This document shows, piece by piece, positions 19,540-24,522 of a DNA stretch of 64,000 nucleotides. The stretch lies in NCBI RefSeq assembly GCF_030384885.1, contig NZ_CP128613.1, one strand, 5' to 3'. The translations under genes were made by a program, and so were the position numbers. The stretch is from Escherichia coli. GTDB lineage: Bacteria; Pseudomonadota; Gammaproteobacteria; Enterobacterales; Enterobacteriaceae. The first letter of the stretch is position 1. The number at the start of each line of letters is the position of its first letter. Below the pieces are notes generated by a model. That model worked only from the letters and a program-made list of their open reading frames with translations. It was not told the origin of the DNA and did not search any database.

Positions 19540-21678
19540 ATGACACCGCATGTGATGAAACGAGACGGCTGCAAAGTGCCGTTTAAATCAGAGCGCATCA
19601 AAGAAGCGATTCTGCGTGCAGCTAAAGCAGCGGAAGTCGATGATGCAGATTATTGCGCCACTGTTGCCGCGGTTGTCAGCGAGCAGATGCAGGGCCGCAG
19701 CCAGGTGGATATCAACGAGATCCAGACCGCCGTTGAAAACCAGCTGATGTCGGGTCCATACAAACAACTGGCTCGTGCTTACATCGAGTACCGTCACGAT
19801 CGCGATATTGAACGTGAAAAACGCGGTCGCCTGAATCAGGAGATCCGTGGTCTGGTCGAGCAGACCAACGCCTCGTTGCTCAACGAAAACGCCAACAAAG
19901 ACAGCAAGGTGATTCCAACCCAGCGCGACCTGCTGGCCGGGATTGTGGCTAAACACTATGCACGTCAGCACCTGCTGCCGCGTGACGTGGTGCAGGCGCA
20001 TGAGCGTGGCGATATTCACTATCACGATCTCGATTACTCGCCGTTCTTCCCGATGTTCAACTGCATGTTGATCGACCTGAAAGGTATGCTGACCCAGGGC
20101 TTTAAGATGGGTAACGCCGAGATTGAACCACCGAAGTCGATCTCTACGGCAACCGCGGTAACAGCGCAGATTATTGCTCAGGTCGCCAGTCATATTTATG
20201 GCGGCACCACCATTAACCGTATCGATGAAGTGCTGGCACCGTTTGTCACCGCCAGCTACAACAAACACCGCAAGACCGCAGAAGAGTGGAACATCCCGGA
20301 CGCCGAAGGTTACGCTAACTCTCGTACCATCAAAGAGTGCTACGATGCCTTCCAGTCGCTGGAGTACGAAGTAAACACCCTGCACACCGCCAACGGTCAA
20401 ACACCGTTTGTGACCTTTGGTTTTGGTCTGGGCACCAGCTGGGAGTCTCGCCTGATTCAGGAGTCTATCCTGCGTAACCGTATCGCGGGCCTCGGTAAAA
20501 ACCGTAAAACTGCGGTGTTCCCGAAACTGGTGTTTGCGATTCGCGATGGCCTGAACCATAAAAAAGGCGATCCGAACTACGACATCAAACAGCTGGCGCT
20601 GGAGTGCGCAAGCAAGCGCATGTATCCAGATATCCTGAACTACGATCAGGTAGTGAAAGTCACCGGTTCGTTTAAAACCCCGATGGGCTGCCGCAGCTTC
20701 CTCGGCGTGTGGGAAAATGAAAACGGCGAACAGATCCACGATGGTCGTAACAACCTCGGCGTGATCAGCCTGAACCTGCCGCGCATTGCGCTGGAAGCGA
20801 AAGGCGATGAGGCCACCTTCTGGAAGCTGCTGGATGAACGTCTGGTGCTGGCACGTAAGGCGCTGATGACCCGTATCGCTCGTCTCGAAGGCGTTAAAGC
20901 GCGCGTGGCCCCGATCCTCTATATGGAAGGTGCTTGTGGCGTTCGTCTGAATGCTGACGACGACGTTTCTGAAATCTTCAAAAACGGTCGTGCGTCTATT
21001 TCGCTGGGTTACATCGGCATCCACGAAACCATTAACGCGCTGTTTGGCGGCGAGCATGTGTATGACAACGAGCAGCTGCGCGCGAAAGGTATCGCCATTG
21101 TTGAACGTCTGCGTCAGGCGGTGGATCAGTGGAAAGAAGAAACGGGTTACGGTTTTAGCCTTTACAGCACGCCAAGTGAAAACCTGTGCGACCGCTTCTG
21201 CCGTCTCGATACCGCGGAGTTTGGCGTGGTGCCGGGCGTGACTGATAAAGGTTACTACACCAACAGTTTCCACCTCGATGTGGAGAAGAAGGTGAACCCG
21301 TACGACAAGATCGACTTTGAAGCGCCTTACCCGCCGCTGGCGAACGGTGGCTTCATTTGCTACGGCGAATATCCAAACATTCAGCACAACCTGAAGGCGC
21401 TGGAAGATGTCTGGGATTACAGCTATCAGCATGTACCGTATTACGGCACCAATACGCCGATTGATGAGTGTTACGAGTGTGGTTTTACCGGTGAGTTTGA
21501 GTGCACCAGTAAAGGCTTCACCTGCCCGAAATGTGGTAACCATGACGCCTCCCGTGTGTCGGTGACTCGCCGCGTGTGCGGATATTTAGGTAGCCCGGAT
21601 GCGCGTCCGTTTAACGCTGGTAAGCAGGAAGAAGTTAAGCGCCGCGTTAAACATTTGGGAAATGGGCAGATCGGTTAA
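19540..21678 (+). CDS. nrdD: Anaerobic ribonucleoside-triphosphate reductase
   Basis: 712-aa ORF with N-terminal ATP-cone and C-terminal glycyl-radical region and zinc cysteines (CYECGF...CPKCG). Confidence 0.97.
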   Translation: MTPHVMKRDGCKVPFKSERIKEAILRAAKAAEVDDADYCATVAAVVSEQMQGRSQVDINEIQTAVENQLMSGPYKQLARAYIEYRHDRDIEREKRGRLNQEIRGLVEQTNASLLNENANKDSKVIPTQRDLLAGIVAKHYARQHLLPRDVVQAHERGDIHYHDLDYSPFFPMFNCMLIDLKGMLTQGFKMGNAEIEPPKSISTATAVTAQIIAQVASHIYGGTTINRIDEVLAPFVTASYNKHRKTAEEWNIPDAEGYANSRTIKECYDAFQSLEYEVNTLHTANGQTPFVTFGFGLGTSWESRLIQESILRNRIAGLGKNRKTAVFPKLVFAIRDGLNHKKGDPNYDIKQLALECASKRMYPDILNYDQVVKVTGSFKTPMGCRSFLGVWENENGEQIHDGRNNLGVISLNLPRIALEAKGDEATFWKLLDERLVLARKALMTRIARLEGVKARVAPILYMEGACGVRLNADDDVSEIFKNGRASISLGYIGIHETINALFGGEHVYDNEQLRAKGIAIVERLRQAVDQWKEETGYGFSLYSTPSENLCDRFCRLDTAEFGVVPGVTDKGYYTNSFHLDVEKKVNPYDKIDFEAPYPPLANGGFICYGEYPNIQHNLKALEDVWDYSYQHVPYYGTNTPIDECYECGFTGEFECTSKGFTCPKCGNHDASRVSVTRRVCGYLGSPDARPFNAGKQEEVKRRVKHLGNGQIG

Positions 21679-21699
21679 TCTTCACTCTGCGCTAAGCAA

Positions 21700-21832
21700 A
21701 TGCCGGATGTGGCGTAAACGCCTTATCCGGCCTACATTTGGCAACGGCTGTAGGCCTGATAAGACGCAACAGCGTCGCATCAGGCGTTGATTGCCTGATA
21801 CCGCCTACACGCGGACTGATAAGCCAGGCGAA
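21700..21832. repeat. BIME/REP cluster between nrdD and nrdG
   Basis: Multiple REP units (gccggatgtggcgtaaacgccttatccggcctaca..., taggcctgataagacgc...gcgtcgcatcaggc). Confidence 0.85.
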
Positions 21833-21835
21833 ATA

Positions 21836-22300
21836 ATGAATTATCATCAGTACTATCCTGTCGACATCGTCAACGGCCCCGGCACTCGCTGCACCCTGTT
21901 TGTCTCCGGGTGTGTTCATGAATGCCCCGGTTGCTATAACAAAAGCACCTGGCGGGTAAATTCCGGTCAGCCATTTACCAAAGCAATGGAAGACCAGATC
22001 ATTAACGATCTGAATGACACCCGCATCAAACGCCAGGGTATTTCCCTCTCCGGCGGCGATCCGCTGCATCCGCAAAACGTGCCGGATATTCTAAAACTGG
22101 TACAACGCATCCGCGCCGAATGTCCGGGTAAAGACATCTGGGTGTGGACAGGCTATAAATTCGACGAACTCAACGCTGCGCAAATGCAGGTTGTTGATTT
22201 GATTAACGTGCTGGTCGACGGCAAATTTATGCAGGATCTAAAAGACCCTTCCCTGATCTGGCGCGGCAGCAGCAATCAGGTGGTGCATCATTTGCGTTAG
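21836..22300 (+). CDS. nrdG: Anaerobic ribonucleotide reductase activating protein (radical SAM)
   Basis: 154 aa from MNYHQYYPVDIVNGPGTRC... with the CxxxCxxC radical-SAM cluster motif. Confidence 0.93.
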   Translation: MNYHQYYPVDIVNGPGTRCTLFVSGCVHECPGCYNKSTWRVNSGQPFTKAMEDQIINDLNDTRIKRQGISLSGGDPLHPQNVPDILKLVQRIRAECPGKDIWVWTGYKFDELNAAQMQVVDLINVLVDGKFMQDLKDPSLIWRGSSNQVVHHLR

Positions 22301-22540
22301 TCACTCATCCAGCCGGACCTTAATGGCCTCCTGTGGGTTGGCCAGTCGTTCCCTGACAGTGCGTAACAAGGCTTCTTCACTATCACTGACAGTGAGCGTT
22401 TTTACCGGCATTCGTCCATTTTCCGCAACGTACTGAAACAGCAGCCGCACTGCTTCAGTAGGCGTGATATTTAATTTTTCCAGCACCGCATAAGCCTCAT
22501 TTTTCAGTTTGTCATCCAGGCGGACGTTAAGTGTGGCCAT
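22301..22540 (-). CDS. RelB/DinJ-family ribbon-helix-helix antitoxin-like protein (no adjacent toxin gene)
   Basis: 79 aa; MATLNVRLDDKLKNEAYAVLEKL...TPTEAVRLLFQYVAENGRMP closely parallels RelB; GGAGG RBS; convergent with nrdG. Confidence 0.6.
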   Translation of the reverse strand: MATLNVRLDDKLKNEAYAVLEKLNITPTEAVRLLFQYVAENGRMPVKTLTVSDSEEALLRTVRERLANPQEAIKVRLDE

Positions 22541-22559
22541 TATGCCTCCGGTAATTATG

Positions 22560-22600
22560 AAAAGTGTAATGCATTATAGCATTACATATGCATTACATTC
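22560..22600 (-). promoter_or_regulatory. Promoter with repeated palindromic operator upstream of the RelB-like gene
   Basis: Minus-strand reading ATGTAATGCATATGTAATGCTATAATGCATTACA: direct and inverted copies of TGTAATGCA overlapping a TATAAT -10. Confidence 0.6.
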
Positions 22601-22696
22601 ATTTCTGGAAAACGCCTCGCAAAAATGAGGACGACACGCAGGAATATGCGGTAGTGAAGATAGATATTGCGGTGATTTTTCGAAGGGGAAGAAAGC

Positions 22697-22727
22697 GTTG
22701 GGCGGTAACGTTTCACCGCCCAATAAG
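22697..22727 (-). terminator. Probable terminator downstream of cybC
   Basis: ttgggcggtgaaacgttaccgcccaa stem-loop just after the cybC stop. Confidence 0.55.
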
Positions 22728-22730
22728 GAA

Positions 22731-23120
<390 letters not shown>

Positions 23121-23169
23121 TCACTTCCTTTTTCTTATTAAGATTTGGCGCGGCAGGTCGCGCCTTTTT

Positions 23170-24522
23170 TTACTGCCCGGCGATTTTCATCTCCGGCAAC
23201 AGCACAGAACCACACTGTATATTGCTGCGTGTTTCAATATCGTTACCGACGGTGACAATATTGCGCCACATATCTTTTAAATTACCTGCGATGGTGATTT
23301 CGCTAACCGGATACTGAATTTCGCCATTCTCTACCCAGAAGCCCGCAGCACCACGGGAATAATCACCGGTAATGGCACTCACTCCCTGGCCCATCAGTTC
23401 CGTCACCACCAGCCCGGTGCCCATCTCTTTGAGCATTTGTTCGAAGCTTAGCCCTTGCCCGGCAATTCGCCAATTATGAATACCGCCTGCATGTCCGGTG
23501 CTTTTCAGCCCCAGTTTACGTGCGGAATAGCTGGTCAGCAGCCACTGGGTCAGAATGCCATCTTTAATAATATCGCGACGCTCGGTGCGCACACCTTCGC
23601 TGTCGAATGGCGTCGATGCCAGCCCTTTCAGCAGATGCGGATGCTCTTCAATGGTCAGCCAATCCGGTAGAATTTGTTTACCCAGCGAATCCAGCAGGAA
23701 GGTGGATTTACGGTAGACCGATCCACCCGCTATCGCCCCAACCAGATGGCCAAAAAGCCCGGTTGCCACTTCATTGGCAAAAATTACCGGCGCTTTCATG
23801 GTGGAAAGTTTACGCGGTGACAGGCGCGATAAAGTACGGCGAGCACAGTCGGCCCCGACCCACTCTGGCGTTTGCAGATCGCTCATCGCGCGACCAATGG
23901 TGTAGGCGTAATCACGCTCCATATCGCCATTTTCTTCGGCAATTACGCAGCTTGAGAGTGAATGACGCGTTGAGCAATAACCCTGCAACATGCCGTGGCT
24001 GTTGCCAAAAACTTTTACGCCGTAGTGGCTGTTAAAACTGCCGCCTTCGGTATTGGTGATGCGTTTATCCGCCTGTAATGCTGCCTGTTCTGCGCGAGCC
24101 GCCAGTTCAATAGCTTCATCCGGGGAAACTTCCGCAGGGTGAAACAAGTCGAGATCCGGCGCGTCAAAGGCCAGCAGCTCTTTGTCTGCCACGCCGGCAC
24201 AGGGATCTGGCGAAGTGTAACGAGCAATATCCAGCGCTGCCTGTACGGTGCGGGCAATGGCCTGCGGGCTTAAATCGGTAGACGATGCGCTACCTTTACG
24301 GTTCTGGTGATAAACAGTGATCCCCAGCGCGCCATCGCTATTGAATTCGACATTCTCCACTTCGCCATATCGCGTGCTAACGCTAATGCCGGTGGTCTTG
24401 CTGACGGCAACTTCCGCACCGTCCGATTTGCCTGAGGCCAACTCCAGCGCAGTGGAAACTGCTTCTTCCAGAATCTTGCGCTGCGCTTCAACTTGAGAGA
24501 TTACTTTCATTGCAAGTGCCAT
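23170..24522 (-). CDS. pmbA: Metalloprotease PmbA/TldE
   Basis: 450-aa [23 protein letters not shown]... (PmbA/TldD fold). Confidence 0.95.

Follow-up and report, generated by a model that had tools for sequence, protein, structure and literature searches.

The DNA analysed here is a 64-kb stretch of the E. coli chromosome (the window) with the gene order treC, nrdD, nrdG, an ORF of 79 aa, cybC, pmbA, yjgA and mpl. The coordinates of the ORF and of the features around it are listed in Table 1. The ORF and nrdG meet with zero gap between their stops: the nrdG stop codon TAG occupies positions 22298-22300 and the stop codon of the ORF positions 22301-22303 (TCA on the plus strand). These positions agree with the original prediction, which had described nrdG as a convergent gene with an abutting stop codon. 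A scan for terminators predicted none between the two stop codons, and the transcripts of the two genes converge.

Table 1. Features of the 79-aa ORF and its surroundings (positions refer to the window)
Feature	Position	Strand	Remarks
nrdG	21836..22300	+	Convergent neighbour; its stop adjoins the relB stop here and the relE stop in full alleles
Sequence specific for the occupied allele that remains after loss of relE	22296..22721		In empty sites about 40 bp with another hairpin take its place
relB ORF	22301..22540	-	79 aa, ATG start at 22540; RelB/DinJ-family ribbon-helix-helix antitoxin and predicted autorepressor
Deletion junction	22305..22315		One remaining 11-bp repeat TCATCCAG[C/T]CG; encodes R-L-D-E on the minus strand
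Shine-Dalgarno sequence GGAGG	22545..22549	-	4 nt upstream of ATG; identical in 14 of 14 alleles compared
Operator arm 3, inverted copy	22565..22572	-	GCATTACA on the gene strand; just downstream of the -10 element, over the expected transcription start
Predicted extended -10 element	22573..22581	-	TATAAT at 22578-22573 and TGn at 22581-22579; enclosed by the palindrome arms; putative promoter
Operator arm 2, direct copy	22579..22586	-	TGTAATGC; the A in front of it completes the hexad ATGTAA
Operator arm 1, direct copy	22590..22597	-	TGTAATGC; 11 bp upstream of arm 2
Hairpin with T-rich tail	22698..22723	-	Likely cybC terminator; far edge of the occupied allele

The 79-aa protein had been predicted to resemble RelB along its whole length, and all comparisons supported this. 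It matched the RelB/DinJ equivalog NF008412 of NCBIfam with 128.2 bits (cutoff 96), TIGR02384 with 72 bits (cutoff 45.65) and the Pfam family RelB (PF04221) with E = 8e-16. Its residues 1-79 matched chain A of PDB entry 4FXE, the RelB protein of E. coli, with E = 4e-20, and its identity to K-12 RelB was 47% over 79 aa. R7, K13 and S28 are DNA-contact residues that are important in K-12 RelB (PMC2812701). R7 and K13 are kept in the alignment of the 79-aa protein with K-12 RelB, and S28 is replaced by T. The C-terminal half, the predicted toxin-binding region, aligns to K-12 RelB up to residue 78. The RefSeq/PGAP annotation already lists the protein as RelB/DinJ antitoxin (WP_000212714.1, strain 2013C-4282), and the window is 100% identical to strain 2013C-4282 across the 601 bp compared. 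By each sequence test that was run, the gene in the window is a RelB-family antitoxin gene, and it is called relB in the following.

On the gene strand the upstream region of relB reads ATGAATGTAATGCATATGTAATGCTATAATGCATTACAC, followed by 23 nt that contain GGAGG and then by the ATG. The TATAAT hexamer is flanked by the second direct copy and the inverted copy of the repeated element, and the last bases of the second direct copy give TGC, which corresponds to the TGn of an extended -10 element. The longest inverted arms at the operator have 10 nt. At both direct copies the sequence ATGTAA fits the hexad [A/T]TGT[A/C]A of K-12 relO, which was defined by mutagenesis and footprinting (PMC2812701). 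Elsewhere in the 64-kb window only four copies of TGTAATGC were found on both strands, and the expectation for the whole window is about 2.7 copies. The presence of three copies within 33 bp is far beyond chance. A strict scan for sigma-70 promoters with -35 and -10 elements returned no promoter at relB. The combination of a poor -35 region with an extended -10 element probably explains this result, and our promoter call is based on the extended -10 element together with comparative conservation.

For this comparison, 100,044 species, each represented by one genome, were scanned for the pattern TGTAATGC-N6-GCATTACA. At least 120 loci with the palindrome were obtained, and among those listed 34 contained a RelB orthologue with 57-100% identity, mostly in species of the Enterobacteriaceae. 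The palindrome was positioned just upstream of relB in all 34 listed loci, and in 30 of them it ended 22-25 nt before the relB start. The N6 spacer resembled a -10 element, with TATAAT in 12, TAAACT in eight and TATATT in five of the 34 listed loci, and a further TGTAAT copy was present upstream in 28 of them. Since the search pattern specified neither the distance to the gene nor the spacer sequence nor the third copy, these features provide independent evidence that the operator architecture is functional. The remaining 86 listed matches belonged mostly to unrelated phyla, and their number is of the order expected by chance. The three copies of TGTAATGC around the -10 element, conserved upstream of relB orthologues, are strong evidence from sequence and comparison for a predicted autoregulatory operator. 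The layout typical for autorepression that had been proposed for this promoter is retained, including two direct copies, one inverted copy and a TATAAT element. One detail has to be corrected: the inverted copy abuts the -10 element and does not overlap it.

The same species comparison informs on the history of the locus. A RelE-family gene was located directly downstream of relB in 32 of the 34 listed species loci, and nrdG was convergent to the module in 25 of them, with the 3' ends about 6-16 nt apart. Loci abutting nrdG were found in Kosakonia, Enterobacter, Citrobacter, Silvania, Kluyvera, Trabulsiella, Pseudocitrobacter and Escherichia, and also in Salmonella enterica subsp. arizonae and diarizonae and in Klebsiella pneumoniae ATCC 13883. 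As the nrdG-linked relBE module is present across genera, the occupied site is ancestral and the empty site, which is common in E. coli, is derived. While relB was full-length in all 34 listed species loci, relE was missing in two and split or shortened in about five. We concluded from these comparisons that relB belongs to an old chromosomal module, which is decaying toxin-first.

We surveyed the gap between nrdG and cybC in 5,426 complete E. coli genomes. The flanks were matched in 5,425 genomes and the relB region in 451-452; the gap was empty in about 92% of the E. coli genomes (about 4,970). In the empty allele nrdG and cybC are separated by 44 bp, which include a different hairpin. The full allele has the order nrdG, relE (96 aa), relB (80 aa, with an 11-bp overlap with relE) and cybC. 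A relE gene was found in 393-394 genomes of the survey, either as part of an intact relB-relE pair or in another variant that carries relE. In the sequence of strain RM14516, relB has a putative deletion of 124 bp and relE is intact. In exactly 58 genomes relB lies directly against nrdG (58 + 394 = 452); we refer to this as the solo state, and it is the state of the window. A search with a seed specific for the junction recovered only 13 of the solo genomes, because SNPs beside the junction break the seed. About 26 of the solo genomes are strains of the O145:H28 type, the reference strains IAI39 and CE10 are also solo, and solo isolates originated from humans, cattle, dogs, poultry, a horse and a frog farm. 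The same junction is present in E. coli SCPM-O-B-8794 and in Escherichia sp. E1V33, which are filed as separate species representatives.

The lack of a toxin partner, as stated in the original prediction, was confirmed by tblastn: cognate RelE gave no match in positions 22000-22750, and the best match in the whole window (E = 0.03) was located at 3694-3777, away from the locus. The bicistronic operon by which members of the RelB/DinJ family are recognised is absent in the window, since nrdG follows directly downstream of relB and no RelE-like sequence is present. We also considered that a toxin is still present and was missed as a small ORF beside relB, for example as one of the 44-49-aa ORFs that can be read mechanically in the spacer between cybC and relB (22574-22723). 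The existence of these ORFs is what speaks for this idea. However, the same spacer is found in full alleles, which already carry relE. It is poorly conserved, with a divergence of 14.9% between Escherichia lineages that is higher than in any other part of the locus, and contains the terminator hairpin of cybC. PGAP left it without a gene call in each of the 13 E. coli records with an occupied site that we inspected. Together with the lack of RelE-like sequence in the window, these findings make a hidden toxin extremely unlikely, and we rejected the spacer ORFs as candidates. A search for known RNA families in positions 21000-24000 returned only sub-threshold matches resembling REP and naRNA4 elements between nrdD and nrdG.

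A three-way alignment of solo, full and empty alleles revealed how the toxin gene is missing. Compared with the full allele the window lacks exactly 284 bp, which comprise the whole relE gene. In full alleles the 11-bp sequence TCATCCAG[C/T]CG occurs twice, 284 bp apart, with one copy at each of the 3' ends of relE and relB. This repeat exists because both proteins end in R-L-D-E: RelE ends with KRLDE and the RelB protein of full alleles with VRLDEL. Since the junction lies inside the shared repeat, the surviving relB gene ends with VRLDE and uses the former last codons and the stop codon of relE. The absence of the last Leu is the sole difference between the 79-aa RelB and the 80-aa RelB of full alleles. 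The suggestion that the solo gene is a remnant of a degraded module is directly borne out by these data: a relB-relE pair is present at the same site in other strains, and a deletion between two 11-bp repeats connects the two states. As expected for an orphan antitoxin that arose by decay, there is an intact pair at the homologous site in relatives and an identifiable lesion that removes the toxin.

Solo alleles differ from each other close to the junction. The nrdG stop codon, 1 bp from the junction, is either TAG or TAA; 18 bp into relB the sequence is either CCTCCTG or CCTCTTG; and two distinct spacer haplotypes are present on the cybC side. For each combination found among solo alleles there is a matching full allele. 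The solo alleles of the window, Z0117 and EC42405 pair with the full alleles of 2020CK-00188 and 2D, and those of O145:H28, AR_0013 and PRO_A pair with the full allele of GF4-3. The C/T site within the repeat varies even among solo alleles on one background. Because solo alleles are found on at least two flanking haplotypes, each of which is common to a full allele, the deletion probably recurred. At least two independent deletions are also the more parsimonious assumption, since a single origin would need recombination breakpoints only a few bases from the junction. Based on 14 sampled alleles rather than on a full phylogeny, the 284-bp deletion of relE thus probably has at least two origins.

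Taken together, we consider it highly probable that relB in the window is the antitoxin remnant of an old nrdG-linked relB-relE module, which lost relE by a repeat-mediated deletion, and that it is now a leftover. In the proposed course of events, an old chromosomal relB-relE module sits tail-to-tail with nrdG in many Enterobacteriaceae, and in the lineage of the window the 284-bp deletion between the 11-bp repeats took out relE, most likely by replication slippage or short-homology recombination. An in-frame relB gene remained, with 79 instead of 80 codons and with the last codons and the stop of relE, and its promoter, ribosome-binding site and three-part operator were left untouched. As judged from K-12 RelB, RelB dimers should still bind to TGTAA hexads and repress their own promoter. 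In K-12, RelB alone represses less well than RelB together with its co-repressor RelE, which also protects it from Lon (PMC2812701). Weaker repression is expected for the solo state because the RelE co-repressor is gone, and RelB is expected to be short-lived because RelE normally shields it from Lon. By this analogy the 79-aa RelB is expected to be a weak and unstable autorepressor. Full repression needs tight binding of RelE, and loss of RelB residues 70-79 is tolerated (PMC12301738). The loss of the terminal Leu should be unimportant. With no toxin encoded in cis, relB would most likely be a leftover under relaxed constraint that is heading for loss, and it has probably not taken on a new role.

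Whether relB is indeed released from constraint can be judged from its alleles, and here the data point in two directions. Independent lesions of relE are present in addition to the 284-bp deletion: in strain 2020CK-00188, which has the haplotype of the window, an (AG)n run in relE has lost 2 bp, and in alleles of the E. marmotae type an A8 run has lost 1 bp. For relB we compared 14 alleles that were picked for sequence diversity, nine of them solo and five with relE. Three of the nine sampled solo alleles combined an amino acid change with a change in the promoter or operator. The O145 solo allele has A72T and a G>A change in the inverted operator arm, the AST262 allele has E55D and D78N together with TATAAT>TAGAAT, and the EC42405 allele has D78G together with TGTAATGC>TGTACTGC. 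The operator was identical in all five sampled alleles with relE, and the RelB protein was identical in the four of these with an intact relB gene. The surplus of changes in the solo alleles of this diversity-chosen sample is suggestive and fits relaxed constraint. Within the marmotae-type clade with frameshifted relE, four of 243 relB sites differ, three of them nonsynonymously, and the flanks differ by about 0.3%. On the other hand, the relB ORF was intact in all 58 solo genomes, the promoter was mostly intact where sampled, and the allele of the window has no lesion and shares its promoter and operator sequence with full alleles. In the comparison of E. coli with the marmotae-type lineage, relB and the core promoter diverged by 2.1% (relB dS 0.05), while cybC, nrdG, pmbA and the relE pseudogene diverged by 7-10%, with a dS of 0.34-0.48 for cybC and nrdG. 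Since relB is conserved compared to its flanks, although relE is a pseudogene in the marmotae-type lineage, something constrains the DNA of relB and its core promoter. Intactness of an ORF over such a short divergence is weak evidence in either direction, and the samples used to assess constraint were small and chosen for diversity, so that neither relaxed constraint nor retention is decisively favoured.

Such a constraint would be explained if selection retained the orphan RelB for neutralising a related RelE toxin in trans, encoded by an incoming plasmid or phage (anti-addiction) or by a paralogous chromosomal module such as relBE of the Qin prophage. The intact ORF in all 58 solo genomes, the unchanged promoter and operator of the window and the unusual conservation of relB and core promoter across Escherichia lineages, one of which has a dead relE, are in agreement with this possibility. 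Furthermore, the state without toxin probably arose repeatedly and has lasted in whole lineages, for example O145:H28 and IAI39/CE10; plasmids of enterobacteria frequently carry RelBE homologues (2,300 records matched at the protein level); and a role in anti-addiction is well established as a proposal to explain orphan antitoxins (PMC7354431; PMC7167474). However, we did not find a plasmid or phage with a close copy: RelB proteins of ordinary plasmids were at most 48% identical, similar to K-12 RelB with 47%. An anti-addiction role would be recognised by a closely related TA module on mobile elements that share the host range, and none was present in the plasmid and phage collections searched. 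Cross-talk between non-cognate type II systems is reportedly rare (PMC12301738). In several solo lineages the C-terminal part for toxin binding and the -10 element or operator are altered, which is unexpected under selection, and a lingering antitoxin after toxin-first decay is the neutral expectation (PMC7167474). With this balance of evidence we regard a role in trans as unlikely.

The searches of mobile elements also addressed the source of the module, and an origin from a plasmid or phage was rejected, as no close relative was found. One 'plasmid' match of 99.7% turned out to be a chromosome of 4.9 Mb that is mis-filed in PLSDB. Two plasmid matches in the range of 60-80% were Klebsiella records of chromosome or megaplasmid size with 73% DNA identity, and the one match in the phage collection (72% DNA identity) was a Salmonella contig.

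As the original prediction had put forward, RelB could also have been retargeted to other promoters, here those with sites of the TGTAA type; alternatively, it could modulate the convergent nrdDG operon. Ribbon-helix-helix antitoxins are true DNA-binding repressors, the converging relB and nrdDG transcripts have no predicted terminator between the stop codons, and the tail-to-tail arrangement with nrdG is conserved across genera. But this arrangement predates the loss of the toxin and is nothing specific to the solo state. Moreover, a second copy of the operator palindrome was not detected in the 64-kb window, even when up to three mismatches were allowed, and all 34 listed palindrome loci that contain RelB have the palindrome just upstream of relB. 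Retargeting was thus not supported, and we consider it very unlikely.

More generally, a function of the toxin-less relB as a stand-alone factor, either as a guard against RelE-type toxins that arrive on mobile elements or are encoded at another place in the genome, or as a small repressor tied to the anaerobic nrdDG operon, has a low probability in our view. We keep it under consideration because the divergence of relB and core promoter across Escherichia lineages is about four times lower than that of the flanks, also at synonymous sites and with relE as a pseudogene, and because the toxin was shed repeatedly while relB remains intact.

The interpretation of relB as the leftover of a decayed nrdG-linked module can be compared with systems described before. 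The relBE module of K-12, located in the Qin prophage (RelB b1564, RelE b1563; PDB 4FXE, 2K29), comprises the same protein families as the nrdG-linked module. K-12 RelE is 65% identical to the cognate RelE of full alleles, and the gene order is the same, with relB first and relE overlapping. The window shares with K-12 relBE the ribbon-helix-helix N-terminus (R7, K13) and, in its predicted operator, a TGTAA hexad core that overlaps the promoter. The loci differ in that K-12 relBE resides in a prophage, whereas relB of the window lies beside nrdG and the toxin gene is absent. The operators are also organised differently. In the window the direct hexads are 11 bp apart, the inverted one follows 18 bp further, and the -10 element is enclosed, while K-12 relO consists of four contiguous hexads in 24 bp, TTGTAATGACATTTGTAATTACAA.

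With regard to decay, ccdO157 of E. coli is a close parallel (Mine et al. 2009, as cited in PMC7167474). According to that review, ccdO157 is likewise a type II module on the chromosome with a fixed intergenic site, and strains differ in whether it is present, degenerate or absent. Deletions or inactivating mutations led to its decay, and drift was proposed as the source of inactive toxin mutants. It belongs to the CcdAB family, while the nrdG-linked module is a RelBE system with one recurring lesion, the repeat-mediated deletion of a whole gene. For chromosomal TA modules in general, decay by deletions, nonsense mutations and inactive toxin mutants was described (PMC7167474). Antitoxins without an adjacent toxin were also reported in surveys of E. 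coli and Klebsiella pneumoniae (PMC10790755; PMC7354431), and most orphan antitoxins were judged to be remnants of once-intact modules (PMC7354431; PMC10790755). Those surveys were statistical, while a comparison of alleles at the nrdG locus gives direct access to the ancestral state, the exact lesion and the recurrence of this lesion.

A search of publications by gene neighbours and protein accessions found none on the nrdG-linked relB locus. It is an unpublished yet unsurprising case of the well-known decay of TA modules and not a new type of system; the RefSeq annotation is correct, and the knowledge on the mechanism of RelBE is unchanged by this locus. It provides a clean worked example for annotation and for TA surveys, in which the ancestral pair, the lesion and the surviving antitoxin are visible at base resolution. 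The module has a built-in weak point: the shared R-L-D-E ends of the two proteins lead to an 11-bp direct repeat. As this repeat brackets relE, the toxin is removable in one step and the antitoxin is left undisturbed. Full, solo, frameshifted-toxin and empty alleles occur naturally in similar E. coli backgrounds, with O145:H28, IAI39 and CE10 among the lineages, and this natural allele panel is a convenient test of whether orphan antitoxins have any function.

The full allele closest to the window haplotype was that of E. coli 2020CK-00188, which has an identical NrdG protein and shares the CCTCCTG variant 18 bp into relB. Since relE is already frameshifted in this nearest full allele (see table), the 284-bp deletion may have followed toxin inactivation in the lineage of the window.

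A lesion in the reverse direction, with relB damaged and relE kept, was present in E. coli RM14516. According to the allele comparison, the RelE protein of this strain is identical to that of the full alleles, and a 132-aa ORF fuses RelB codons 1-18 through an out-of-frame linker to the entire RelE. RM14516, a viable isolate, apparently carries the toxin without its own antitoxin. This toxin-only state is possibly an assembly error; it is also possible that RelE of RM14516 is a weak toxin or that it is neutralised in trans.

The relB gene together with its core promoter was about 4-fold less diverged than the flanking genes, synonymous sites included, when the E. marmotae-type alleles (L018, L020-L022) were compared to a full allele (L001). 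The dS values were 0.05 for relB, 0.17 for relE and 0.34-0.48 for cybC and nrdG. Candidate explanations for the low divergence of relB and its promoter are a recent recombination patch and selection acting on the DNA or RNA itself.

The nrdG gene is convergent to the relBE module, and the stop codons abut or lie within a few bases of each other in the window and in 25 of the 34 orthologous loci among the matches listed. This layout is kept in at least 10 genera. Since the terminator scan revealed none between nrdG and the module on either strand, nrdDG transcripts may run antisense through relE and relB, and the converse may also occur.

In empty-site E. coli the nrdG-cybC spacer comprises 44 bp and holds a distinct hairpin (TTCCCTGTTACC...GGCAACAGGGAA), while the predicted cybC terminator of the occupied alleles is TTGGGCGGT...ACCGCCCAA. 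As judged by sequence, the entire spacer is swapped between empty and occupied alleles, which goes beyond mere excision of a cassette. Comparison of Escherichia lineages showed that the nrdD-nrdG spacer either differs at roughly 50% of sites or cannot be aligned. Its three overlapping matches to Rfam naRNA4 (34-40 bits) stayed below the gathering score of 59.5 and look like REP-type palindromic repeats.

Positions of features in the window and in the compared loci
Feature	Locus	Position
relE, frameshifted by the loss of 2 bp from an (AG)n tract	L012 (E. coli 2020CK-00188)	1216-1504
Region with the relB-internal deletion of 124 bp, relE intact	L008 (E. coli RM14516, NZ_CP043937.1)	1155-1745
Stop codons of nrdG and relB	window	22298-22303
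nrdG-cybC spacer of the empty allele, including the hairpin	L003	1602-1645
Predicted cybC terminator	window	22698-22723
naRNA4-like matches	window	21665-21817
Palindrome without RelB homologue, examples	L023-L025, L031-L037	

No RelB homologue was present in the fetched locus for 86 of the 120 8+6+8 palindrome loci among the matches listed, many of them from unrelated phyla; this number is on the order of the chance expectation in 298 Gb. The PLSDB record NZ_CP134663.1 (4.9 Mb, E. coli) contains the full module at 99.7% identity and is evidently a chromosome misplaced among plasmids. In a quick search, this record would suggest a false plasmid origin of the module.
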